Below, in pieces: positions 1,559 to 19,010 of a stretch of DNA of 64,000 nucleotides. Each line of letters opens with the position of its first letter. The first letter of the stretch is position 1. The position numbers and the translations under genes are program-made. A model generated the notes under the pieces. That model made no database searches, was not told where the DNA came from, and worked only from the letters and a program-made list of their open reading frames with translations. The stretch comes from a virus. The stretch spans positions 32,001-96,000 of IMG/VR virus record IMGVR_UViG_3300007177_000055. One strand, 5' to 3'.

Positions 1559-1912
1559 ATGCCAAACCTCTTTGAGACCTCAGCTTCCTTTGAAGAGGAA
1601 GACTTTACAGATGAAGCCGTCGCAGTCAGCTCTTTTGATGGCACAAGGCAAATCTCCTTAAAATATGGAACCGAAACTGTATACGTAGACCTTACGCTGT
1701 CTACCTACGCTGGCAAGACTTTGGCCCAAATCGCTGCTCTGCGAGCAGACGACTTAGGTTTTAGTCGCGATGCTTCTCGACTAAACTACCGCCGTGGGGG
1801 AGAGTCTATCGAACCCTCATTTATCCCTAAACCTGGGATGTCTTTTGTTCTTAGCACTTCTGTTGATACTAAGGGCCAGCCAGATAGTAAAGGCGGTTTT
1901 CAGTCAGTCTGA
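1559..1912 (+). CDS. putative ubiquitin-like (beta-grasp) protein with C-terminal DTKG/DSKG motifs
   Basis: Pattern beta-beta (QISLKYG, TVYVDL), helix (GKTLAQIAALRADDLG), beta (LNYRRGG), final strand (PKPGMSFVLS) ending ...DTKG, like PRTRC protein C-type Ubls; E1/E2/JAB genes are present in the window. Confidence 0.65.
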   Translation: MPNLFETSASFEEEDFTDEAVAVSSFDGTRQISLKYGTETVYVDLTLSTYAGKTLAQIAALRADDLGFSRDASRLNYRRGGESIEPSFIPKPGMSFVLSTSVDTKGQPDSKGGFQSV

Positions 1913-1980
1913 AATAAAACCAAGCATACTTAGCACTCTGGTAACACAGAGTGCTATTGTATGTTTACTTGTCTAAAAAT

Positions 1981-3759
1981 ATGGCTAGGCTTTCTAGGGA
2001 CAGTTTTGGAGCTTATCTAAAAGAAATCGGTAGGTTTGAGCTCCTCAGTAAAAAAGACGAACAAGAACTTGGAAGCCTAGTTCAGCTGGGTGAACAACTT
2101 TTAAGCATCAAAAAACAAAATTCGGGTATCCAGACTCTAGAAGAACACGCTAATGCTGCCGGACTAACAACAAAAGAGTTACAACGCACTCTAATAAAAG
2201 CTAAAAGAGCTAAAGATAAATTGATCAAGCACAACTTACGATTAGTAGTTTCTATAGCTAAAAGATACACCAATCGTGGCGTGTCTATGGTTGATTTAGT
2301 TCAAGAAGGCACTATAGGTCTTAACCGGGCAGTCGAAAAGTTTGACCCTAAAAAGGGGTTTAAGTTCTCTACCTACGCTTGTGTACCTTTAACTACTGAG
2401 ATACTTACTCAACGAGGCTGGTTAAAGTTCCACGAACTTGAACCTGGTGATCAAACCATTGGATACGATCAAGGCGTAAGTAAGTGGACACGCATTTTAG
2501 GAAGCAAAGTTTATGGCAAAGCTCCTCTAGTAACCTTTGGAGACTCCAAGTGGTCAGTAGAGTGTACTGGCCAACATAAATGGATTGTGAATGACGAAGG
2601 TACTACAAAGCTAATACCACTAAAAGAAATTGACTTTAAAAAAGACTCTACCAGGTTAGTAACTTCTGCTAGTTTTGTCGGTGGAGATAACCCAATGACT
2701 GCAAAGGAAGCTGCTTGGATAGCCGAAGTAATTTCAGTCAGCAAACCTAAAGAAGATCAACCGGACAATGCCAGCCTATCTGATCTAGTACTAAGTCTAA
2801 AACCAGCGGCACGTAAGGCCTGGTTTGAAGTGTGGTGTAACTCAAGCAGACCTCGTTCTGTTGAGGAAACGCAAGCTTTAGCACTTTGTGCTTTTTTAGA
2901 AGGGCACTCTAAAGTTAGAGTCAACGAACAAACAGTAGAGTGGACAGTAGAGTTTAACGGTCCGGGCTCTCTTTTTATAGAAGATGTTGAAAACGTTAAC
3001 CAGAAAACTTACTCTCAAATTTTCAGCCCTCCTACCATAAAAGCTTGTGGCAGCGCACCTGTTTGGTGTCCTAATACTGAACTAGGTACCTGGACTGCTA
3101 GGACTCCGGAAGGCAGAATATTCTTAACAGGTAACACTTGGTGGGTAAGACAAGGCATTACCCGAGCAGTAGCTTTACATTCCAGAACTATACGTTTACC
3201 AGTACATATCTTTGAAAGACTTAATAAAATAAAAAAGGCAACTCGAACACTGTCACAACAAAACGGTAGACAACCAAGCATCTTTGAAATTGCCTCTTTT
3301 ATAGAAGAACCTATAAATAAAGTGCTAAAGTTAATGCAGTACTCGAAAGTAATTAGGTCGACAGACTCCTTGTTGAGCGATTCTACAGGAACCAGTTGCT
3401 TAAGAGACTTTTTAATAGACGAGATTACCCCAACACCTGAAGAAGTAGTCGAGCGAGAATTAAACGCCGTTTATATCAAAAAACTCCTTAAAGGGTTAAC
3501 AGAACAAGAAGCTTACATAATCAAAAAGCGTTATGGTATAGACCTAGAGTATCCCGTACCTCTAAAAGAAATAGGAGTAGCCCTAGATATTACTACTGAA
3601 CGAGTAAGACAAATAGAACGCAGGGCATTAGAAAAGTTAAAAGAAACCCATTTGTTTCATGAAAAACATCACCCTAAACTTAAGCGCAATACCTTAATGG
3701 GAAAAAGCGGAGTTACATACAAACCAACTGAGGTTACAAAACTTGAAGTAGACTCATAA
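1981..3759 (+). CDS. rpoD: RpoD/SigA-family sigma70 factor (cyanobacterial type, no region 1.1), intein-containing
   Basis: YLKEIGR (1.2), NLRLVVSIAKRY (2.1), DLVQEGTIGL (2.2), KFSTYA/TWWVRQGI (2.3-2.4), RTIRLPVH (3.0), ERVRQIE (4.2); ATG 1981 preferred over GTG 1951. Confidence 0.93.
   Translation: MARLSRDSFGAYLKEIGRFELLSKKDEQELGSLVQLGEQLLSIKKQNSGIQTLEEHANAAGLTTKELQRTLIKAKRAKDKLIKHNLRLVVSIAKRYTNRGVSMVDLVQEGTIGLNRAVEKFDPKKGFKFSTYACVPLTTEILTQRGWLKFHELEPGDQTIGYDQGVSKWTRILGSKVYGKAPLVTFGDSKWSVECTGQHKWIVNDEGTTKLIPLKEIDFKKDSTRLVTSASFVGGDNPMTAKEAAWIAEVISVSKPKEDQPDNASLSDLVLSLKPAARKAWFEVWCNSSRPRSVEETQALALCAFLEGHSKVRVNEQTVEWTVEFNGPGSLFIEDVENVNQKTYSQIFSPPTIKACGSAPVWCPNTELGTWTARTPEGRIFLTGNTWWVRQGITRAVALHSRTIRLPVHIFERLNKIKKATRTLSQQNGRQPSIFEIASFIEEPINKVLKLMQYSKVIRSTDSLLSDSTGTSCLRDFLIDEITPTPEEVVERELNAVYIKKLLKGLTEQEAYIIKKRYGIDLEYPVPLKEIGVALDITTERVRQIERRALEKLKETHLFHEKHHPKLKRNTLMGKSGVTYKPTEVTKLEVDS
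2380..3135 (+). mobile_element. intein (252 aa, endonuclease degenerate) in the sigma factor
   Basis: Starts CVPLTTEILTQRGW, block B ECTGQHKW, ends VWCPNTELGTW...FLTGN before Thr; removal restores FSTYA-TWWVRQ. Confidence 0.92.
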
Positions 3760-5609: not shown

Positions 5610-5936
5610 TTAGGGTAAGATTTTTACACTGGCTGGTTCAATACTAGGTGAACCTTGAAAAGCACACAACAGTGCTCTACTAGTCTTGCTAAGAGTTTGG
5701 TCTACTTCGTTCCTTAATGCGTCTACACTAGCAGCTGTCTGCCTTTGTTTGTTGGCGTTTTCAATCACCAAAGTAGGCAGCCATGCAACAGCACAAGCCC
5801 AATCGTCTACCTCTTCACCAGTGTTTGGATTAGTTCCTCTGACTTGGGTAAACCAAGCACATTGTAAGCCAACACAGTCTTTTTTTATAAGGGGACAAAA
5901 TTTACCAGCTTCTAGTTTCATTAGTTTCTGGAACAA
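5610..5936 (-). CDS. conserved Cys-rich fibre-adjacent phage protein
   Basis: CPL..KDC...CAWF...GTNPNTG...WACAVAWLP.LVIEN, a pattern commonly seen beside aquatic phage fibre genes. Confidence 0.7.
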   Translation of the reverse strand: MFQKLMKLEAGKFCPLIKKDCVGLQCAWFTQVRGTNPNTGEEVDDWACAVAWLPTLVIENANKQRQTAASVDALRNEVDQTLSKTSRALLCAFQGSPSIEPASVKILP

Positions 5937-8900
5937 AGTATTACGTCAATATATTTTACTGCAAAGTCCATTGTATTAGAAGTAGTCTGAGTGGCCGAGG
6001 CGTATTGAATAAGAATGCCCGTGCTATTGCTAGCAGTACTTCCTGAACTAGTAACAAGAGAAGCTGCACCAGTACCTGTACCCGGACCTGGATCACTAGA
6101 TTGTTCCTTATACGTATAAGAGTGAGAGTGTCCCGGGTCGTTAATACCGTGGTTGTGGTTTACTAGGGGTACAGTTCTGCTAGTAAAGGCACTAGTAAAG
6201 TCCATAGTACCAGATGAGCCACCGCCAGGTCCAGATACCACTCTTATAGCTTTGTTTTGGTGTGTAGTTACTTGTGTCCAATTTAAAGGCGCTGCAGCTT
6301 GATAAAAAAGTAACGTATCTCCAGTACTAAAATCTGAAAAATTTTGAATTCTGTCATCTATTAAAGAAACAGCTGTAAAAGGAGTAAGTACAGCTTTTTG
6401 GTCCGTTCCGGCTAAAGCTTGAAGCGCGGTAGCTAACTGAACAAAACCAGCGCGTTGCGTAGTAGCGTATAGCTTCCAATTGTTAGAAGCCAATATTGGC
6501 GTTTCAAAATCTGTAAGAGAGTTAAAAGCAAACTTGGCAGACCTAAGATCTAAAGTGGCATTAGGGAACAAAAGTAGTCTTTCAGTAACTGTCAAACGCT
6601 TAAAAATCTTACTGTCAGAACTTGTAGAGCTACCCAGGTCAGTTTGCTTACCCGTCTTTAAGTCTATGATTTGTTGACCGATGATAAAGTTACCATCTTG
6701 ATCCATACCTGTGTTATAAACCCGACCGCCAAAAGACTCTTTTTTTATTCGAGCTATTGACTGCTGAAAAGTAAAAACTTTATCCTGAAACAGGGGTAGA
6801 GCCGAAGAGTAATTTAAGTATCCTTGCCATTCCCAAGTGTGTCCAGTGCATCTTATAGTGGAAGGACGATGTAAGTTAGTAAATAGCCTGGCCGGCAAAC
6901 TCACTTCTCTAGTATTTGCTTGCAGCAAAGCTGTTCTAGTAGATAAAGGCAAACCTATTTCGGTAAGTATAGTGTCTAAAGCTCTATAAGTAGCCGAAGT
7001 AGCTGGATTGGATACAGGGTCGTCAACGTTTATTTCAGGATATAGCCCACTTAATGGTTCGTTTGTAGAACCTGCCAACATTAGGGCTATATAATAAGTA
7101 CCTAAAGGTAGAGCAGTTCCCTGAAAATCAGTAGTCTTTACGCTAGCTACAAAAACAGGCGTAGTTAGCTGTAAGCCCATTAGCTGCCGATCAAGCTGCA
7201 AAACAAAGTTTTCTAAAGGCCGGCGTTTGTTAGCAGCAGAAAGACCTTCTAATTTTAGCCACAAAATGCGGTCATCTTGTTCTCTTTGGTCAGGACTGCG
7301 CTTAATGATTACAGGAAAATCTTCAACTAAAGCACGGTTGTTATATATACCGTTGTTAGTAGCTAAAGTGTTAAAAAACCAGCCATTTGAATCTTGAGAA
7401 TATAGAGGAGCTGTACTGGTCAAAGTAGCGGAGTACTCGGTACCATCTTCTCCAGTCACATACAACCTTTCTCCAGGCAAGTAAGTAAAAGGAGCTATAC
7501 GGTCTTCACTAGGCTGAGAGTCTACGTAGAGCTTAGTCGGAGTATTAATATCTAGATTAGTGCTAGTTTTTAACTTAAAGCTTAGAATAGGTATGTTAAG
7601 TACCGTTGAATCTATAGCTTTAGGTAAAATTATAGTATCTACATAAGAACCTGAGTCTTGGGGTAAAGGTTGCGCCGCAAAGCCACTAGCTACTAGAGAT
7701 AAGTCACCGAAGTTAGAGCAGCTATTGGTAATAGAAAGCTCACCTCCATTCTCTACTTCGTAATGAACTGCCGAACAAACCACAAAGCAACTAACAATTT
7801 GTGCATAGCCGCCATTAGTGGCCCTAAAAGCTCGATGTCTCCACTCTGGTTTATACCTTTTGTTTCCAGGTAGAGTATTATCGGTAGTAAAAGCTCGGGT
7901 GTCAGCCTGCAAGCTTACGTTAGTAAACTGAGCTGTAACCATCGACTTTAAGCCTGTGACTTTAGCTCCATCTATTACTAACCCATTAAGTCCAAATCTG
8001 GAACGTACCGAACAATTAAAAACGTATGGACTCGCATATACAGCAGTATCTACACCTAGAAAACCGTTTGCGTCTAAAGTTTGATTACTAGCAGTAGAAG
8101 CAACTATTTGCGTTTCAGCTGCATTAGCCTGAAAGTCAGCTAAAACTACGTTAGGAGATTGTGTTAACCCTAACACTTGGTAAATCTTAGAATAATAACT
8201 AGAGTCTGAACCTGCTAGTTCTTCTGCAGTTGCAAATTCTGCACACCCACAAAGGTGATGGCTACTCTGAAGAAATGCATTGTCAGTAAAAGTAAAACCA
8301 TATAGGTATGACCCTCCGGTTAGTTTAAAAATACTAGTTCTACCAGTACCAAAACAACCAGGGTCGGTTAGCCAATCAGTAAAGTTACCGACATACCTGG
8401 GACGAAACTTAGTTTTCCTGAGGTCTAATGCCACTATAGACACGCCCCGAGGGGTAATCAAACCACCCTTGATAGGGTTAAATACAGAATAATTAGGGTA
8501 ACTAACTGAATCTCCTATAGACCATACGCCTTTCATGCGACGCACAGTAACTGTAAAGTTGTCAACAGCAACTACTATAGCTGAGCCACCAGAAGAACTG
8601 AAAATCTGCTGACGAGGATACAGGCCTTCGGCTACAGCATTAGCAAGGTTTAGTACACCAGTAACTAAATTAATGCCAGTGACCAATCCACTTAACAACT
8701 GAGGATTAATAGGGCCCGTATCAGTTGGGGATAACCGAGGCAGAGCTGAATAGCTCACTACTCCTGGTCGGTTGTCTAAGTGGTAGTCACCAGAGTGTAC
8801 CAAAATAGTATCTTGATCATACAAATCATTATCTGCACCTGCTCGGTAAGACCTTAAAGCTGAAGCTATTAAAGCTCGCTCAGGAGTTAAAAAAGGTCTG

Positions 8901-9499
8901 GCTGGATCTAAACCGTCATTTTCAATAGAATCGTCACCTATAGTTTGATCTACGTGTATTTCATTTGATTCTGTACGTAAAGTAACAAAACCAGAGGCTG
9001 TTGCCCAATCAGCTAACCCTGCTGGGTTTACAGCCGTAGTTTCAGAAACTCCAGCTTTTATTTCTTCTAAAGTCGCTAAACGAACTAAACCAGCTTCTGT
9101 TTGGGTAGCGTCTACCGGAGTAACCTTGTACCAAACGGTTCCGTCATTAACAAAAAAAGCACCATCTGTTTTCCTTAACCACAGCTGGCCTATTTGACTT
9201 AATTTTGCAGAGTTGTTAGTAAACTCAATTCCCGGAGCGGTAGTACTTACTGCATCAGTGGTAACGTAGGCCGGACCAACTCTTACTACTTTGTCAGATA
9301 CATTTTCTGAAGCACCTGTACCAACTCTTAAAAATAAACCTACAGAACTAGCTATCAAGCTAGGGTTTGAAGTCCCGTGATTAACCGTAACTTCGCCGCG
9401 ATATAAGTCTTCAGGAGTAGTAGTACTAGGCACACGGTTAGGTATCCCACTAGACCGGGATACGATACGTGTTACGTCAAAGTCTCTGGGAGTACCCAT
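5921..9499 (-). CDS. large tail fibre / virion structural protein
   Basis: PRGVSIVALDLRKTKFRPRYV resembles cyanomyovirus structural proteins; ATQTEAGLVRLAT and ATTQRAGFVQLAT fibre repeats; HNH-HSH tip motifs. Confidence 0.8.
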   Translation of the reverse strand: MGTPRDFDVTRIVSRSSGIPNRVPSTTTPEDLYRGEVTVNHGTSNPSLIASSVGLFLRVGTGASENVSDKVVRVGPAYVTTDAVSTTAPGIEFTNNSAKLSQIGQLWLRKTDGAFFVNDGTVWYKVTPVDATQTEAGLVRLATLEEIKAGVSETTAVNPAGLADWATASGFVTLRTESNEIHVDQTIGDDSIENDGLDPARPFLTPERALIASALRSYRAGADNDLYDQDTILVHSGDYHLDNRPGVVSYSALPRLSPTDTGPINPQLLSGLVTGINLVTGVLNLANAVAEGLYPRQQIFSSSGGSAIVVAVDNFTVTVRRMKGVWSIGDSVSYPNYSVFNPIKGGLITPRGVSIVALDLRKTKFRPRYVGNFTDWLTDPGCFGTGRTSIFKLTGGSYLYGFTFTDNAFLQSSHHLCGCAEFATAEELAGSDSSYYSKIYQVLGLTQSPNVVLADFQANAAETQIVASTASNQTLDANGFLGVDTAVYASPYVFNCSVRSRFGLNGLVIDGAKVTGLKSMVTAQFTNVSLQADTRAFTTDNTLPGNKRYKPEWRHRAFRATNGGYAQIVSCFVVCSAVHYEVENGGELSITNSCSNFGDLSLVASGFAAQPLPQDSGSYVDTIILPKAIDSTVLNIPILSFKLKTSTNLDINTPTKLYVDSQPSEDRIAPFTYLPGERLYVTGEDGTEYSATLTSTAPLYSQDSNGWFFNTLATNNGIYNNRALVEDFPVIIKRSPDQREQDDRILWLKLEGLSAANKRRPLENFVLQLDRQLMGLQLTTPVFVASVKTTDFQGTALPLGTYYIALMLAGSTNEPLSGLYPEINVDDPVSNPATSATYRALDTILTEIGLPLSTRTALLQANTREVSLPARLFTNLHRPSTIRCTGHTWEWQGYLNYSSALPLFQDKVFTFQQSIARIKKESFGGRVYNTGMDQDGNFIIGQQIIDLKTGKQTDLGSSTSSDSKIFKRLTVTERLLLFPNATLDLRSAKFAFNSLTDFETPILASNNWKLYATTQRAGFVQLATALQALAGTDQKAVLTPFTAVSLIDDRIQNFSDFSTGDTLLFYQAAAPLNWTQVTTHQNKAIRVVSGPGGGSSGTMDFTSAFTSRTVPLVNHNHGINDPGHSHSYTYKEQSSDPGPGTGTGAASLVTSSGSTASNSTGILIQYASATQTTSNTMDFAVKYIDVILCSRN

Positions 9500-9575
9500 C
9501 TAACTAATTAACTTGCCTCTATAGAGACTAACAGTACAACAGTCCTTTTACCAACTACTATATCGGTTAACCTAG

Positions 9576-9986
9576 GTGTATACGTTAGCAAAGCGTATGA
9601 ATGATGGGCTCGGCTTAACTCTTTCTGACTACTTAGACAAGAAAAAAGTCAGGTATCAACATCGTCAAGCTATCTTTACTGCATTTGACCACAAATGTGC
9701 TTACTGCGGTCAACCAGCTCAAAGTCTAGATCACGTCAAGCCTAAGCACAGAGGTGGCCAAAATCTTAGCTCTAACTTAGTACCAGCATGTTTAGCCTGC
9801 AATCAATCAAAAGGTTCTACTAACTTGTGGGATTTCTTCCACGAAGAACAATCTTTCTACTCAAAAACAAGGGCAGATTTCTTAAAAAAATGGATTTCAG
9901 GAGAAATCCATTCACTTCACGTACTTACTACACAGGAACTAGGTCTAGATACTAGCTGCTATTCGTTTAATGTAAGCTTTACTTAA
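9576..9986 (+). CDS. HNH endonuclease
   Basis: CAYCG...LDHVKPKHRGG...NLVPACLACNQSKG. Confidence 0.92.
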   Translation: MYTLAKRMNDGLGLTLSDYLDKKKVRYQHRQAIFTAFDHKCAYCGQPAQSLDHVKPKHRGGQNLSSNLVPACLACNQSKGSTNLWDFFHEEQSFYSKTRADFLKKWISGEIHSLHVLTTQELGLDTSCYSFNVSFT

Positions 9987-10024: not shown

Positions 10025-11650
10025 ATGAGTACAACTGAGAGTAAGACTGCAGCAATAGAACCTTTTGTTAGGACTAAAAGTGGGTGTTTACAGCTAATAA
10101 CTTCGGAATATTGGGGGAGCTGGTATAGAGCTATCGACGATCCTAAAGGTAAAGATATAGATACGAAAGACCTCTTAAGTAGGTTCTGGATAAAACCCGA
10201 CTTTGACAAAGTTCCACTAGTAGACTTACGTCGAATCGTAACTTTTTACCGTAAGTACATCTCCAACCTAGCAGCTAACTCTACAATTGACACTAACGAA
10301 GTACAAGTCTTACTGCTGCGGTCTGAAACAAATGTTAAAGTCTGGAAAATCCTAGTACCTAAGCAAATTATTACACAAGCTGCTGTTGAAGCAGTAACTC
10401 ATCCATGCTGTGATCTAGAAACTGGCGAAGATCACGATATATTCCCACCAGCAGGTTGGGTGCACGCCGGCAGCAGCCATTCTCACAACACGATGTCTGC
10501 TTTTTTTAGTCCCAAAGACGATCGAGGCGAACTGACCGTACCAGGTTTGCACTTTGTTATTGGATCCATTACGTCTGACAGCTACGACATCAAAGCGTCT
10601 ATAGTAATAAATCGCGCACGTTTCTTAGTACCACCTACTCACGTACTAGAAACTGGCGATATCCCGGTGGCAATAAACCAAGCTTTGGTAGCCAGGTTTA
10701 AAGATTCTGAAACAGTACCCTATGCAACAGAAGTAGAAACCTATGTTAAAAGGGCTCAAGACGTGCGTAACTCAGTAAAGGCTGAAAGCTTTACCTACCA
10801 CACTGCTAGCCCTTATTCATACCCTAATTTGCGTCGTCGTACTCGCAAACACTCTTTTAGAAACGCCCCTTACAGTTGGACTCCTGGCATTAACCCCAAG
10901 CTAGACGATTTCTCTGATTTACTAGAAAACTTTAACGAAATAAGTCAATACCAACCTAGCAAAACAGTAACTGTTACTGGCAGGCCGCAACTGTTAAGCA
11001 GCGTAGCGTTTGACTTAGCAGAAATACTGAAGAGTCTTAAGCATACTTACCCAGAAATAGTATTTGATGCTTTAGTAAAACACGATTATCTTTCAGCTGA
11101 AGAAACCCCCCAAGCCTCAGGTGAGGCTACAGAAACTGAAAAACCACTACTCTCAGATTTTACAGAAGACGCTGACTGGTGCGCTGACTGGTCCGCAGAT
11201 CCTTTAGACACCAGTTTTATACTGCTAACTTCTTTACTAAGCGACCTTGAACAAGAAGCTGTGGCCAAAGACATAGTTTACGCTATGTTAGTTGCTCACG
11301 GGCTCCTTAATCTCCACTACTTCTCCATTGATCCATATGTTGTAGACCTTGGAGAATATCTAGTTGAAGGTAAAATTATTGACTCGGTATTTCCCGAAAA
11401 AGAGAACCTAATCAAACTAGCTAAAGCCTTAGATTCGCTTTTAGTTGACGAATACGCCCGAGTAGTTTGTGGGATTTTGATCAACTTAGATTACCTAAGC
11501 ATTGAGGATCTTTGTGACTACTTGCCTGAAAGCGAAATTCGGCGAGGCATCCTAGAAGCCAACGAATACACTTTAACTTTTACGGATTCTAATCCTGAAC
11601 TAAGCGCCGCACCTAAATTACCAGAACCTGACTGGTCTGACTTTGTTTAA
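10025..11650 (+). CDS. JAB/JAMM metallopeptidase (PRTRC protein A-like) with long acidic C-terminal extension
   Basis: Upstream Glu (TNEVQV), VPKQ, then HSHNTMSAFFSPKDD (HxH-x7-S-x2-D) and GLHFVIG. Confidence 0.88.
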   Translation: MSTTESKTAAIEPFVRTKSGCLQLITSEYWGSWYRAIDDPKGKDIDTKDLLSRFWIKPDFDKVPLVDLRRIVTFYRKYISNLAANSTIDTNEVQVLLLRSETNVKVWKILVPKQIITQAAVEAVTHPCCDLETGEDHDIFPPAGWVHAGSSHSHNTMSAFFSPKDDRGELTVPGLHFVIGSITSDSYDIKASIVINRARFLVPPTHVLETGDIPVAINQALVARFKDSETVPYATEVETYVKRAQDVRNSVKAESFTYHTASPYSYPNLRRRTRKHSFRNAPYSWTPGINPKLDDFSDLLENFNEISQYQPSKTVTVTGRPQLLSSVAFDLAEILKSLKHTYPEIVFDALVKHDYLSAEETPQASGEATETEKPLLSDFTEDADWCADWSADPLDTSFILLTSLLSDLEQEAVAKDIVYAMLVAHGLLNLHYFSIDPYVVDLGEYLVEGKIIDSVFPEKENLIKLAKALDSLLVDEYARVVCGILINLDYLSIEDLCDYLPESEIRRGILEANEYTLTFTDSNPELSAAPKLPEPDWSDFV

Positions 11651-11653
11651 CTA

Positions 11654-12712
11654 ATGGAAAACCTAGTACTTGCTACAGAGCAAAATACACCACCCACTAA
11701 AAGAACAGCATGTAGAGGTAAACACAAGTTTATTCCGTTTCCGTCAGGAACTACAAAAGCTATAGTCTCCTATGATTCTTACGAACCTGACGAAATCTAC
11801 ACAGGATATACCACTAAAATATTTACTGTTACTGAGCCTCGAACAGCTCGAATAACACTAGCTACAAGAGAAGACTCTGCTAAATGGCTAGAAGCATTTA
11901 GTGCTAAAATCTGTAAGTCTTGTAGTAAACTGGCAGTTCCTGCCAAGATACTGGAGCAAGCTTATACTGCAGATCCAAGTTTAATAACACTAAACTTGGA
12001 TCAAATGCAAAGTTTCCTAGCCGAAAAAATTGAGGGTGCATGTTTAAGCGTTACCAACCATGTAAAAGGAGTATGCCCAGCCGGGCATGACATAGCTTCT
12101 GGACTAGAAGAGCAAAAAGTAGCTGTGATGAAAGTCCCAGCGTTATGCTTGATGTCTACGTATACTAGCAGAACAAGCAGTAGTCACTTTGCTTTTGATC
12201 AAGGACGAAAGTACAGTCTTTTTGCTTACAAAGATGATAATCAAGTTCCTTATATAAGTCCTTATAGACCAGCTAATGTATACACTAACGGAAATATTTG
12301 TTGGGGTAAGCAACCGTTACCCCAAAATCCTAAACAAGCTTTGGCGGCTTATTGGGGTTCTGGTTTCAATCGTGATTTAGCCTCTCAAGCAGCTAATACT
12401 CTAAAAGGTACCTTAGAAAACTACGAGCAGCTGTCTAGCAACTTTGAGAAGCTAACACTGCATACACTTCAAAACGTCCAGGGCATTAACAAACCTTGTG
12501 TGGGAGTTTATTTAAGCTCTTTTAGTAACTTGTTGTCGGCAGTTCCGTCAGAACTCCACATAAAAGTACGCTCTGAGACTTTTGTATTAGCTTGGGTTCT
12601 GTCTGCAGAACCTGATAGATACTTACTGGAGTTTAAGGAGTTTTTAGTAGAAATGAACGATTTAAACGGTCGTGCAAAAGTAAAAGTTCTTAGTTCATCC
12701 CCAGAAAAATGA
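11654..12712 (+). CDS. prokaryotic E2 ubiquitin-conjugating-like protein (PRTRC protein B / Prok-E2-like)
   Basis: PANVYTNGNICWG...AYWGSGFNRDL with the putative catalytic Cys; lies between JAB and E1. Confidence 0.8.
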   Translation: MENLVLATEQNTPPTKRTACRGKHKFIPFPSGTTKAIVSYDSYEPDEIYTGYTTKIFTVTEPRTARITLATREDSAKWLEAFSAKICKSCSKLAVPAKILEQAYTADPSLITLNLDQMQSFLAEKIEGACLSVTNHVKGVCPAGHDIASGLEEQKVAVMKVPALCLMSTYTSRTSSSHFAFDQGRKYSLFAYKDDNQVPYISPYRPANVYTNGNICWGKQPLPQNPKQALAAYWGSGFNRDLASQAANTLKGTLENYEQLSSNFEKLTLHTLQNVQGINKPCVGVYLSSFSNLLSAVPSELHIKVRSETFVLAWVLSAEPDRYLLEFKEFLVEMNDLNGRAKVKVLSSSPEK

Positions 12713-13512
12713 AATTTGACGCAGTTCACCTTGTAGGTCTAGGTGGTACAGGTTCTTACTTAGCAGCTCCTCTTGCCAAGCTATTGAAGTACCACCAAAA
12801 TGGGACGGAGAACCTCCACTTTTGGGATAAAGATAAACTTGAAGTTAAAAACCTCACCAGACAAGACTTTACTCCAGAGTCTATCGACAAGAATAAAGCT
12901 CAAGAAAAAGCTGCTGAACTAGAAAGCATCAACTCTAATATTAAGGTGCATCAGTCTTGGTTCGTTCCAGACACACTAAATGCATGTTTAAAAGAGGATC
13001 CCAGTGACAACCTGCTAATAATCCTAGCTGTTGACAACGATGCAACCCGGCATCATATCATTGTTGAGCTAGACGGCATGCTTGATCAAGACTTTGTACT
13101 AGTTCTACCTGGTAACGGATACGACACCGGCAACACTTTCTGGTACGGGCGACAAGGCACAGAAACAGCTCCCGTGCACCCTTTTGAAGTGGCTGACAAC
13201 TGGGCAAGACCTCAAGATGGTCTACCAGGAGATTGTGCTTTAGAAGCAGTATCCAGCCCTCAGCTATTAGCTAGCAATTTAGCCCAAGCTCTGGGATCTT
13301 TGTTGTTGGTACAAGGTTTGTTAGAAGATCAGCCTATGCCTTTTAAACTAGACTACTCTGGCCCTGAGTTTAGCATCGTTGCTGAAGGCAGGCCTACGTA
13401 TTTTCCTAGCTTGACACGCCAACCAGAACCTGTTGTTGAGTCAGAGGCAGAAACACAAGACCTACTGCCTGAATCTGTACCTAGCTCTACAACTGTAGAG
13501 CTGTTTTCTTAA
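12709..13512 (+). CDS. ThiF/E1-family adenylyltransferase (ubiquitin-activating-like)
   Basis: VGLGGTGS, DKD.LEVKNLTRQ, NKAQ, AVDN..TR, GNG and GDCA...PQL..N (putative catalytic Cys); ATGA overlap with E2. Confidence 0.92.
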   Translation: MKFDAVHLVGLGGTGSYLAAPLAKLLKYHQNGTENLHFWDKDKLEVKNLTRQDFTPESIDKNKAQEKAAELESINSNIKVHQSWFVPDTLNACLKEDPSDNLLIILAVDNDATRHHIIVELDGMLDQDFVLVLPGNGYDTGNTFWYGRQGTETAPVHPFEVADNWARPQDGLPGDCALEAVSSPQLLASNLAQALGSLLLVQGLLEDQPMPFKLDYSGPEFSIVAEGRPTYFPSLTRQPEPVVESEAETQDLLPESVPSSTTVELFS

Positions 13513-13513
13513 A

Positions 13514-13996
13514 CTAATACTCTCCCCCGAAAATTTGACCTACTACTAAACCTCTAGCACCTAAAGCTATCATATTTGATTGCAAAGAAACTGTTACTTG
13601 CAAAGCAGGATCTATCAAACTCATATTGTAGTTAAACTTGTTGCCAAAAGTAACTAGATCATCTGCTGTAGGGTCTTCCTCAAAGTCACCTAGTTCAGCT
13701 CTTAGTAGACCAAACCCTAAAGGACTACTAGAAACTAGAGTACCACTACCAGCAAACATAGCTACTATAAAGCAGCTCAGTCCACTGGTAGGAGCTTCAC
13801 TAAAAGTAATAGTATCCTCTAAAACTGTAAAGTTAGTTACAGGTGCTTGAGGTACACCCCCCATAACAGCCATAAGCTGAGCTGCATTAGCAGGGGTAAA
13901 AGAAGCTCCTGATAACCTTAAGGGAAAGGTTACTCTGGATCCGTCAAAAAGACTAGAAACATCATCTAGTAGTACATTACTAGCTGGATTAGACAT
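13514..13996 (-). CDS. virion structural protein (cyanophage fibre/baseplate-type domain)
   Basis: DDVSSLFDG.RVTFPL...QLMAVMGGVPQAP..NFTV...ITFSEAP repeat unit known from cyanophage structural proteins. Confidence 0.7.
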   Translation of the reverse strand: MSNPASNVLLDDVSSLFDGSRVTFPLRLSGASFTPANAAQLMAVMGGVPQAPVTNFTVLEDTITFSEAPTSGLSCFIVAMFAGSGTLVSSSPLGFGLLRAELGDFEEDPTADDLVTFGNKFNYNMSLIDPALQVTVSLQSNMIALGARGLVVGQIFGGEY

Positions 13997-17393: not shown

Positions 17394-17658
17394 CCACGCT
17401 GCTCGGTTATTAGAGAATGAAAGAAAAGGCGGCGAACTAGAGCCCGCCGAAAAACAATTTGTAATTTACGCCACCCAAGAAGCTGACGCAGCTACGCTTG
17501 AATACCAACAAGCCAAATCTGTGTTCGAAAAAACAGCTGAGAACTATCGAACAAAAGTAACTGTTATTCAGGGCTTTTTAAAGTATTTAGCAAAAAAGTA
17601 CAACCTGAGTGAAAGAGAAGACATTGACGTACAAGGTAACATTATCACTCGCAGCTAG
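17386..17658 (+). CDS. hypothetical protein
   Basis: ORF coupled between recA and the polymerase gene. Confidence 0.65.
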   Translation: MSDHAARLLENERKGGELEPAEKQFVIYATQEADAATLEYQQAKSVFEKTAENYRTKVTVIQGFLKYLAKKYNLSEREDIDVQGNIITRS

Positions 17659-19010
17659 TGAACTTCTTTTACTGCAATACCCTAGAAAGCTATAACCAAG
17701 GTCTAAGCAGACTAAGTAAAGAACCGCTAGCGTTAGATACAGAAACTATGGTTAGGCCTCAGTATGAAGGTAAAGGTGGTAGTGCCCTAGACCCTCATAC
17801 AGGTCGTATTTCTCTAATCATAGTTCAACACTTAAACCAAAATCCGATCATATTTGATCTGCTTTGTTTAGAAGCTTTAGGTTACAACTCTACTTTACTA
17901 GTTGAAGCTTTAGACGCAGCTGAATACTTGTTGGGAGCTAACATCAAGTTTGATGCCAAACAGTTACGAGGGACTTTAGGCTACACACCTAAAAAACTAA
18001 GAGACGTGATGTTGCTGGCTAAGTTGATCAGTAATGCTACTGGTTCTAAAGCCGGTAAAGCTGTTGGACATTCTTTAGGTGATCTTACCAGAGAGTACTT
18101 AAATATACATCTAACCGGTAAAGGCACTCTACAGAAGTCTACCTGGGGCACTGGCATAGAATCTCGCACGTTAGACAATGAGTGGTGGGTTAGTAAATTA
18201 GCCTATGCAGCTAGCGACGTAGCGTATTTATTCTCGTTGCAAGCTAAAATGCTGCCCGTGCTGGAAACACCTTTGCCAGACTCTCCTCTAACACAAACGG
18301 GTAATGAGGGTACTTGGGGTTTTGGTATGTCAGTACCTGTTAACCGTGAGTTTAGGTTAATACCAGTCACAGCTGAAATGGAGTACAACGGCTTGCCTGT
18401 ATCTGCCACTTTTATGGCCAGCTTTCAAGAAGCTGTTCGGGATTCTTTAGACAGCCTAGGAGTATACCTTTGCAAAGAACTAAAGCTAGACACTCCACAA
18501 AAGGACTGGTCTGGCAAAGAAGTTCCGTCACTCAAAGCTCTTAAAATCTTAAGGTCAGCGACTGGACTACTAGACCTAATACGTAAAGCCTTAGATTTCA
18601 AAAAAATAGACAACGTTCAAGCTAGTGTGCTACAACGAATGGTTTTCATTCTGGACGCACTTGCTGCTTCTAAAGTAGAAGACCCAGACGCCCCTACTAG
18701 CGGCGAGTTGTTCATTAACGAAGACGAAGAATCACTATACTCTGAGTTGACAGAACTAGAACACTGTCAACTAGTAGCAGCCTCACCTTTAGTTCAAGCT
18801 ATCTTGGATTTTAAGCGCTTAACCAAACAAGATGGGATGGACTTGCGTAAGTATGTAAACCCAGCTACAGGTCGTATACACCCTTCCTATAGTCAAATAG
18901 GTGCTGCTACTGGTAGGTATGCTTCTTCCGGACCTAACGCTCAGCAAATTTCCAACAAAACCAAGGTACTACTAGATGGGTTCCAAACCCTTGGGCTGGC
19001 CGCTACGTAA
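17658..19010 (+). CDS. polA: family A DNA polymerase, N-terminal part (3'-5' exonuclease and thumb)
   Basis: ExoI ALDTET, ExoII NIKFD, ExoIII YAASDV, EMEYNG, GRIHPSYSQIGAATGRYASSGPNAQQI; stops before motif A. Confidence 0.92.
   Translation: MNFFYCNTLESYNQGLSRLSKEPLALDTETMVRPQYEGKGGSALDPHTGRISLIIVQHLNQNPIIFDLLCLEALGYNSTLLVEALDAAEYLLGANIKFDAKQLRGTLGYTPKKLRDVMLLAKLISNATGSKAGKAVGHSLGDLTREYLNIHLTGKGTLQKSTWGTGIESRTLDNEWWVSKLAYAASDVAYLFSLQAKMLPVLETPLPDSPLTQTGNEGTWGFGMSVPVNREFRLIPVTAEMEYNGLPVSATFMASFQEAVRDSLDSLGVYLCKELKLDTPQKDWSGKEVPSLKALKILRSATGLLDLIRKALDFKKIDNVQASVLQRMVFILDALAASKVEDPDAPTSGELFINEDEESLYSELTELEHCQLVAASPLVQAILDFKRLTKQDGMDLRKYVNPATGRIHPSYSQIGAATGRYASSGPNAQQISNKTKVLLDGFQTLGLAAT

Follow-up and report, generated by a model that had tools for sequence, protein, structure and literature searches.

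A Candidate Four-Part Ubiquitin-Like Conjugation System Encoded by Large Phages

Do phages carry ubiquitin-like conjugation machinery of their own? In bacteria, conjugation of this kind has so far been characterized as a weapon of the host against phages, as in CBASS (Cap2/Cap3) and Bil. The question is raised by a stretch of 64,000 nucleotides (nt), here called the window, which comprises bases 32001-96000 of the IMG/VR virus contig IMGVR_UViG_3300007177_000055 (125,409 bp, estimated 72% complete). Three adjacent genes in the window encode a JAB-type metallopeptidase, an E2-like conjugating enzyme and an E1-like adenylating enzyme (JAB, E2 and E1 hereafter). A first reading made from the letters alone (the sequence-only reading) had proposed that here the phage itself carries writer and eraser enzymes, and had pointed to a small open reading frame (ORF) at 1559-1912 as a possible ubiquitin-like modifier (Ubl). 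The viral origin of the source record agrees with the first of these proposals. We consider it rather probable that the four genes make up a complete phage-encoded conjugation system, consisting of a beta-grasp Ubl ending in Lys-Gly, a JAB peptidase, an E2 with a UBC fold and a ThiF-type E1.

Gene Context in the Window and in Other Phages

The three enzyme genes are translationally coupled. JAB and E2 are separated by 3 nt, and E2 and E1 overlap by 4 nt (ATGA), as read from the DNA. Reading back the DNA also returned the positions and intact catalytic motifs that had been described for the three genes. Ubl, JAB, E2 and E1 each occur in a single copy in the 125-kb record. A metagenome scan yielded one short contig, L003, and comparison with this relative (84-85% amino acid identity) gave ratios of non-synonymous to synonymous substitution (dN/dS) of 0.24 for the E2 part and 0.13 for E1. 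These values speak for E2 and E1 as real genes under purifying selection.

Scanning IMG/VR with the JAB alignment retrieved 18 loci, that of a sister phage (G001) and 17 others, collapsing to 13 distinct sequences; L010 to L013 are one phage recovered from several samples, as, likewise, are L015 and L016. The 13 distinct carrier contigs measure 40-371 kb and range from 0.34 to 0.64 in GC content, and two of them are complete jumbo phage genomes with terminal repeats (370,804 and 258,362 bp). According to hidden Markov models (HMMs) built from our own alignments, JAB, E2 and E1 lie adjacent on one strand in all 13 distinct loci, in the order JAB-E2-E1 except in L008, where it is E2-JAB-E1. A Ubl ORF is found upstream of the cassette in each of the 12 loci with upstream sequence, and directly upstream in 11 (L007, which begins at a contig end, was left out of this test); in L022, an ORF of 295 amino acids (aa) separates the Ubl gene from the cassette. 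These small upstream ORFs all end in (S/T)-x-E-x-K-G plus 0-2 residues (12/12 loci). An HMM made from the Ubls of the window lineage alone matches 6 of the 12 (E 9e-8 to 1.3e-3), and the Ubl of L019, kept outside the training set of a wider HMM, matches that model with E 3.6e-15. When all ORFs of the loci were clustered by BLASTP, Ubl, JAB, E2 and E1 were the only genes common throughout, and structural or tail neighbours were not conserved in the other carrier loci. This gene context is the decisive evidence for the four-gene system. It also sustains the earlier pick of ORF 1559-1912, whose homologues stand upstream of the enzymes in every testable locus.

Gene order in the other carrier loci points to a Ubl-JAB-E2-E1 operon as the ancestral unit, from which the window lineage would have departed by moving its Ubl gene next to a sigma-factor gene. 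A sigma-70 gene follows the Ubl gene in the window; in G001 the Ubl gene lies about 16.6 kb upstream of the cassette. The slot directly upstream of JAB, held by the Ubl gene in most other carriers, is occupied in the window by an HNH endonuclease gene, and the sister phage has the same arrangement (L002 6806-7216). The HNH gene is probably a mobile insertion outside the system. Its presence at the usual Ubl slot in the window genome (G000) and in G001 may be tied to the relocation of the Ubl gene. The sigma-70 gene itself (window 1951-3759) matches Pfam region 2 at residues 91-144 and region 3 at residues 422-499, with a gap of about 270 residues.

A search for the JAB subfamily in 185,579 prokaryote species genomes, made with two peptide patterns only, matched 600 stretches, none of them a relative. 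Because none was found in these genomes, the subfamily looks virus-specific. Among 50,697 GenBank phage records, neither blastn of the cassette nor tblastn of E2 gave a match. Scans of viral contigs with the single proteins E2, E1, Ubl and P0147 returned no relatives, and the A1 profile scan returned G001 only. One weak tblastn match of E1 to plasmids was set aside, being a twin-ThiF and ABC-transporter locus and not a related cassette.

Some carrier loci show further features. In seven low-GC loci, E1 is followed by a helical ORF of about 110 aa (L007 2926-3261, L010 12867-13262, L015 4565-4900, L017 12933-13280, L018 12857-13195, L020 14150-14494 and L022 14063-14392), which may be a fifth component and is without a homologue in the window genome. 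The ORFs right after E1 in high-GC loci match this family weakly in L023 (E 8e-4) and L014 (E 0.0074), and non-significantly in L009 (E 0.093) and L019 (E 0.25). A ferritin-like gene lies within 10 kb of the cassette in seven distinct loci, at varying distance and on varying strands; the copy in L017 (4872-5315) matches Pfam Ferritin with E 4.4e-22. The 370.8-kb jumbo phage of locus L008 has two Ubl copies with identical C-terminal halves and an E2 of 504 aa with a long Cys-rich insertion (coordinates of interest 6139-6621, 7769-8095 and 8303-9817).

Predicted Folds and Active Sites of the Four Proteins

The Ubl candidate was picked by screening the ORFs of the whole genome for short products with a Gly near the C-terminus. 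In its product, an acidic N-terminal arm leads into a beta-grasp core (about residues 30-100), then a flexible tail with K105-G106 (nt 1871-1876) and an extension of 11 residues (nt 1877-1909), which homologues lack or have in variable form. In the eight clusters of homologues found, conservation ends at D-T-K-G and 0 to 11 unrelated residues follow; two of the homologues terminate exactly at the Gly. In a wider family alignment of 16 sequences, L66, K105 and G106 are invariant, and nine of the sequences end exactly at Lys-Gly. The Gly pair in the tail of the window Ubl (SKGG) was considered as the conjugation end and rejected, as it is not conserved and the conserved end is K105-G106.

The modifier has no Pfam or NCBIfam match, nine of its homologues match no NCBIfam family, and Pfam Prok_Ub (PF14454) matches nothing in the genome at E<=10 and none of the 16 Ubls. 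AlphaFold2 predicts a core of beta-beta-alpha-beta-beta-beta layout (pLDDT 86-89), after which the tail is disordered. Foldseek returned 21 matches in PDB at E<=1e-3, and among the matches listed all are ubiquitin or Ubl proteins, including a Bacteroides ubiquitin-like protein, Caldiarchaeum ubiquitin, NEDD8 and SUMO. A wide structural alignment with VIA placed beta-grasp domains in 49 of the 50 rows listed (Z 9.2-6.7), among them SAMP1 and, with Z 6.7, the Ubl of a bacterial E1-E2-Ubl complex of the Bil type (8tyz_B). The structure rows of an Atlas search were likewise beta-grasp families, with leads all under 0.9. The assignment of ORF 1559-1912 as a predicted beta-grasp modifier with a flexible tail and a conserved Gly holds up.

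JAB has a conserved N-terminal domain (about residues 15-200) with E92 (nt 10298-10300) and the motif H152-S-H154...S162..D165 (H-S-H-x7-S-x2-D), read from the DNA at nt 10478-10519. In an alignment of 29 sequences, in which 28 of 40 retrieved homologues join the window protein, E92, H152, S153, H154, S162 and D165 are invariant, which amounts to the full JAMM signature. One of the 40 homologues (P0171) carries a precomputed match to Pfam Prok-JAB (PF14464). In the window protein, the matches to Prok-JAB and to NCBIfam PRTRC_A both fall within residues 148-191. Residues ~230-541 (nt 10715-11647) form a lineage-specific C-terminal extension, homologues elsewhere measuring 320-420 aa; it gave no family, fold or usable Atlas match, and its Atlas model is of low confidence. 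PHROGs holds no family for JAB or for E2, and no significant match came from searching PDB sequences with profiles of the E2, JAB and Ubl alignments.

In the sister phage G001, the JAB gene is split inside the JAMM motif, between H-S-H-N-T-M and A-F-F-S (L002 7737-8845). Within the insertion, of about 1.1 kb, lie an ORF for a LAGLIDADG-type endonuclease and, at 8519-8792, a group I intron core (Rfam RF00028, E 4.8e-21, 83 bits); the window copy is uninterrupted. We count this intron, with its homing-endonuclease gene inside the JAMM motif, as evidence that JAB is a real gene.

E2 matches Pfam Prok-E2_D (PF14460) at residues 184-245 (E 9.1e-6, 25.9 bits, cut-off 25). A profile made from eight close homologues and searched against 1.84 billion representatives matched 120 proteins at E<=1e-3, 18 of them at E<=1e-10. 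In an alignment of 57 E2 relatives, N208 and C216 are the sole invariant residues, and 35 of the 57 match Prok-E2_D at E<=1e-3. Both residues lie in the active-site loop P-A-N-V-Y-T-N-G-N-I-C-W-G (NVYTNGNIC at nt 12275-12301), with the Asn eight residues before the Cys. The AlphaFold2 model obtained with the 57-sequence alignment (pLDDT 91.0, pTM 0.84) has a UBC fold at about residues 22-265, interrupted by a helical insertion of about 85 residues (~70-155), and an extra C-terminal beta domain (~274-346). In a wide VIA alignment of this model against 48,161 representative chains, rows 2-13 are all UBC E2 enzymes (Z 5.2-4.7, 112-126 residues). A second look at the Foldseek candidates (pdb_via) listed 50 rows, all of them E2 entries (Z 5.4-4.6, 98-129 residues aligned), in which the match spans model residues ~22-265 and nearly entire E2 chains. 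Foldseek against BFVD gave one viral protein (E 6.4e-4). The protein is thus predicted with high confidence to be UBC-folded, and a conserved Asn stands ahead of its putative catalytic Cys; the E2-like character first read from the motif is upheld by the predicted model.

E1 is matched by Pfam ThiF (PF00899) with E 3e-13 and 49.9 bits (cut-off 28.1). It contains a GLGGTG P-loop (nt 12736-12753), an NLTRQ Arg finger, a VDND Mg site and the motif PGDCA with Cys176 (nt 13234-13236), a putative thioester-forming residue. GxGGxG, N..RQ, VDN.ATR and Cys176 (P.D..P..G.C) are invariant in all 15 viral E1s, which consist of the adenylation domain only (235-301 aa).

The best NCBIfam match of E1 is the ThiS adenylyltransferase ThiF (E 2.8e-12), and this raises the possibility that the Ubl acts as a sulfur carrier. 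The thiolation of a cofactor, tRNA or DNA would then draw on a thiocarboxylate at its C-terminus, as in ThiS, MoaD and Urm1, with the E2-like protein as a persulfide or thiol relay in such an acyl-adenylate pathway. One of the 16 Ubls weakly matches Pfam ThiS (PF02597; E 0.0062, below its cut-off), and the structures matched by the Ubl include MoaD and ThiS-like folds, although Foldseek ranks ubiquitin, NEDD8 and SUMO above them. Every locus keeps a UBC-fold protein with Asn-x7-Cys of the conjugation type, as well as the JAMM isopeptidase, and both count against this reading. Rhodanese, MoaE and ThiG exceed the cut-off in none of five carrier genomes (three of them 96-100% complete), in agreement with the earlier remark that thiamine and molybdopterin genes are missing nearby, and this argues against a phage-encoded cofactor or sulfur pathway. 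We regard a sulfur-carrier role as quite improbable.

Table 1. Coordinates of the four predicted system genes and of neighbouring genes in the window
Feature	Position	Strand	Evidence
Ubiquitin-like modifier (117 aa)	1559..1912	+	Beta-grasp model, conserved KG tail
Tail fibre gene (flank; context only)	5921..9499	-	phrog_529 tail fiber protein, E 1.4e-127
HNH endonuclease gene	9576..9986	+	Pfam HNH E 9.1e-11; PHROG HNH endonuclease E 2.9e-21
JAMM/JAB metallopeptidase (541 aa)	10025..11650	+	Prok-JAB and PRTRC_A matches; invariant JAMM residues
E2-like conjugating enzyme (352 aa)	11654..12712	+	Prok-E2_D match; UBC-fold model; N208/C216
E1-like adenylating enzyme (267 aa, ThiF/MoeB type)	12709..13512	+	ThiF PF00899; invariant Cys176
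Virion structural protein gene (flank, convergent with E1; context only)	13514..13996	-	phrog_10330, E 2.7e-13

Further along the window, a 450-aa ORF at 17658-19010 shares 27-28% identity with proteins that Ma-LMM01/MaMV-group phages of Microcystis encode. A promoter and terminator scan gave counts of 6 against 7.6 and 3 against 4.2 in shuffles, that is, no excess. Four DNA sequencing runs from one study carry the stretch, together with one run in which its share is small.

A Proposed Cascade and Its Possible Uses

From the families to which the parts belong we infer both the chemistry and the direction of transfer. JAB would remove the 11-residue tail of the Ubl precursor and expose Gly106, which E1 would adenylate with ATP before taking the Ubl onto Cys176 as a thioester. 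The Ubl would then be handed to Cys216 of E2, with Asn208 as the oxyanion-hole residue. E2 would attach it to target lysines without a separate E3, and its helical insert and C-terminal beta domain may select substrates. JAB would also strip the Ubl from conjugates. Since nine of the 16 Ubls already end at the Gly while the peptidase is universally kept, it must do more than maturation, which argues for this eraser role.

Several points weigh against such a cascade. The Ubl gene of the window lies 8.1 kb upstream of the cassette and in another transcription unit. E1 is without the ubiquitin-fold domain that would recruit an E2, and the small E1/Ubl pairs ThiF/ThiS and MoeB/MoaD do sulfur chemistry, not conjugation. 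Neither an E3 ligase nor a target was found, no RNA sequencing runs carrying the stretch are listed, and we know of no characterized function for PRTRC, the nearest named family. The match of JAB to Prok-JAB (E 0.0028, 18 bits) is under the 25-bit cut-off, and E2 passes the Prok-E2_D cut-off only marginally. Foldseek of the E2 model against PDB gave nothing at E<=1e-3, and its VIA Z of only about 5 is in a range where chance arrangements occur. We attribute this modest Z to the helical insertion that interrupts the UBC fold, and base the UBC assignment on the uniform hit list together with the motif, not on Z alone.

If these sub-threshold matches meant that the resemblance is due to chance, or that the cassette is a decaying relic, the three ORFs would encode unrelated or inactive proteins. 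Such an explanation is hardly credible to us. The catalytic residues are invariant in 29 JAB, 57 E2 and 15 E1 sequences, and their motifs can therefore not be put down to chance; gene order is kept in all 13 distinct viral loci, and the dN/dS values speak for functional constraint.

Accepting a conjugation system, one may ask what it is used for. We give an even chance to the possibility that large and jumbo phages of many hosts use this virus-specific, E3-independent cascade offensively, tagging host or phage proteins during infection. Two other uses are suggested by the position of the cassette in the window, between minus-strand fibre and structural genes, a placement that the sequence-only reading had described and that the matches to phrog_529 and phrog_10330 corroborate.

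One possibility is that the four-part machinery serves mainly in counter-defence against Bil or CBASS Cap2/Cap3 of the host. JAB would take host Ubl off phage tail proteins or undo the priming of cGAS-like enzymes, and host components would face competition or tagging by the Ubl, E1 and E2 of the phage. Bil reportedly interferes with phage assembly through structural proteins, and a cassette between tail-fibre and virion genes would suit this use, although its neighbours in other loci are not tail genes. The patchy spread over unrelated large phages across a wide range of GC content, usual for accessory arms-race genes, and the lack of JAB relatives in the pattern scan of species genomes would also be in line with it. 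In PADLOC-DB 2.0, the closest models to E1 are the CBASS 'E1-E2' ones, which match only its first ~110 residues (best E 1.7e-8), while JAB and E2 have no matches there (coverage of Bil by that version was not checked). For erasing, a phage would need no more than a deconjugase, but all four parts persist in each of the 12 testable loci. We consider counter-defence unlikely as the main use.

The other possibility is a device for virion assembly or maturation, in which a structural protein would gain the Ubl, or lose it by cleavage, while the tail or fibre is being assembled. Pairs of a phage Ubl and a JAB peptidase in tail-assembly clusters are on record in an earlier survey (Iyer et al., 2006; PMC1779556), namely TAPI (Ubl) and TAPK (JAB plus NlpC/P60) of lambda and T1. 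These systems do without E1 and E2, and the cassette in the window is oriented with the replication genes, on the strand opposite to the structural genes, which are moreover not conserved as its neighbours in other loci.

A cultured phage bears on the same question. Salmonella phage Arash (OQ632216.1, 180.8 kb) was reached through a weak tblastn match of the JAB domain. It encodes an E2-like protein with Asn-x7-Cys kept (gp248c, HMM E 2.8e-6), a JAB with the motif H-S-H-N-T-M...S..D (gp247c) and an E1 (gp246c, HMM E 7e-22). Its GenBank record labels gp246c and gp248c as 'structural protein', which would favour a role in assembly. According to the accessible text of the phage's description, this label was given to proteins detected by mass spectrometry in the phage preparation, which also contained RNA polymerase, ribonucleotide reductases and ligases (PMC10585845). 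Given those polymerases and reductases, the label would indicate expression and not a structural role. In the same accessible text, gp246 and gp248 are named once each, and ThiF and ubiquitin are unmentioned. All in all, we find an assembly device quite unlikely.

Two side observations concern these distant relatives. In Arash, an unannotated 66-aa ORF ending in T-K-G (L024 107-307) lies 1.2 kb upstream of the E2-JAB-E1 homologues and overlaps gp251c in another frame; it was considered as a Ubl, is unsupported by the Ubl HMM (E 9.7), and stays a weak lead. A tblastn search of GenBank phages with E1 gave one weak match, the uncultured phage fragment MT835919.1, in which JAB and E1 homologues are adjacent with no E2 between them and a 360-aa ORF follows E1 (L025 7-1682).

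Comparison With Known Systems

The kinds of parts are already known, from bacterial operons predicted to encode E1, E2, JAB and Ubl (Iyer et al., 2006; PMC1779556) and from the characterized Bil and CBASS Cap2/Cap3 systems. What is new is that a four-gene system specific to viruses occurs in many large phages, that its Ubl family has no model in Pfam or NCBIfam, that its E2 bears additional domains and that the window lineage has the genes in a split arrangement. We found no phage-borne E1-E2-Ubl-JAB system in the literature, nor did the sequence-only reading know of a characterized one; the work of Burroughs, Iyer and Aravind from 2009/2011 lay outside our coverage and may bear on novelty.

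Phages, and not only their bacterial hosts, probably use ubiquitin-style protein tagging. The four-gene kit, whose carriers include the complete 258- and 371-kb jumbo genomes, would show the viral side using the same chemistry as the host. If this is true, it would be the first complete writer-plus-eraser ubiquitin-type system belonging to prokaryotic viruses and not to host immunity, and would parallel the use of ubiquitin by eukaryotic viruses. It raises the question of which proteins are tagged, be they of host defence, host metabolism or the virion. The system offers a new Ubl family and a compact, apparently E3-free cascade. In practical terms, the Lys-Gly end of the tag would leave a mono-Gly remnant after trypsin (+57 Da on lysines), a useful handle, and the distant version in the cultured phage Arash, whose E1 and E2 homologues bear a label traced to mass spectrometry, would make the idea bench-testable.

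The closest named likeness is to PRTRC cassettes, which sit on plasmids and integrative elements (ICEs) and in whose name 'PR' stands for ParB-related protein. Both systems place separate genes for JAB, an E2-like protein and a small ThiF-type E1 on a mobile element, and the window proteins remotely match PRTRC_A, PRTRC_B and PRTRC_ThiF over their catalytic regions. The scores are 18.7 bits for JAB against PRTRC_A (TIGR03735; cut-off 101.8, E 0.001, residues 152-191), 17.9 bits for E2 against PRTRC_B (TIGR03737; cut-off 131.45) and 39.8 bits for E1 against PRTRC_ThiF (TIGR03736; cut-off 144.75, E 3e-10). Ten of the 57 E2 relatives match PRTRC_B at E<=1e-3, the best being P0039 (E 4e-8, 32.9 bits). 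PRTRC_C (TIGR03738) has no match in the 125-kb record at E<=10 and none in the 16 Ubls, and ParB_N (PF02195) is found at E<=0.001 in none of the five carrier genomes. The carriers here are large phages, not plasmids or ICEs, Prok_Ub is missing as well, and the phage E2 has its helical insert and extra C-terminal domain. The resemblance to PRTRC noted by the sequence-only reading stands as a remote one, and membership is rejected: all three enzymes fall far under the curated cut-offs (18-40 bits against 102-145), with no PRTRC_C and no ParB. The module appears to be a remote, virus-borne relative of the Prok-E2_D/PRTRC kind of cassette.

With Bil (BilABCD, Iyer type 6d) the phage system shares four separate parts (Ubl, E2, JAB and E1), the lack of an E3 and a C-terminal Gly on the Ubl. 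Bil is encoded by bacteria as a defence, whereas here a virus carries the system, and the Ubl families differ in sequence. The type 6d E2 is without the classical E2 residue pattern and uses a downstream His (PMC1779556); the phage E2, in contrast, retains Asn-x7-Cys. CBASS Cap2/Cap3 likewise combines E1 and E2 chemistry with a JAB eraser, and its 'E1-E2' models are those that the phage E1 matches in PADLOC. Cap2 is an E2-E1 fusion that conjugates a CD-NTase's C-terminus, with no free Ubl, whereas the phage has its E1 and E2 as separate proteins, along with a dedicated Ubl gene. Among the genes conserved beside the cassette there is no cGAS-like or effector gene, no dedicated CD-NTase search having been made.

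The TAPI/TAPK pairs resemble the phage system in combining a JAB peptidase with a beta-grasp Ubl that is encoded by a phage and whose C-terminal Gly is conserved (PMC1779556), and differ in that their role in tail assembly involves proteolytic processing only. ThiF/ThiS and MoeB/MoaD share the small adenylation-domain E1 and a beta-grasp protein ending in Gly. They lack an E2 and a JAB, and their partners (sulfurtransferases, ThiG and MoaE) were not found in the five carrier genomes.

Finally, the predicted fold of the phage E2 is that of eukaryotic E2s such as UBE2S, Ubc9 and UbcH5 across the whole UBC domain, with the Asn eight residues before the Cys. Identity is 8-16%, and the phage protein differs by its helical insertion of ~85 residues and its added C-terminal domain. 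Canonical E2s carry a His-Pro-Asn (HPN) motif, whereas the phage E2 reads Pro-Ala-Asn, with no His at the HPN position. A eukaryote-like Asn-x7-Cys in a UBC-fold protein of this kind would extend the history of E2 enzymes by a viral branch.

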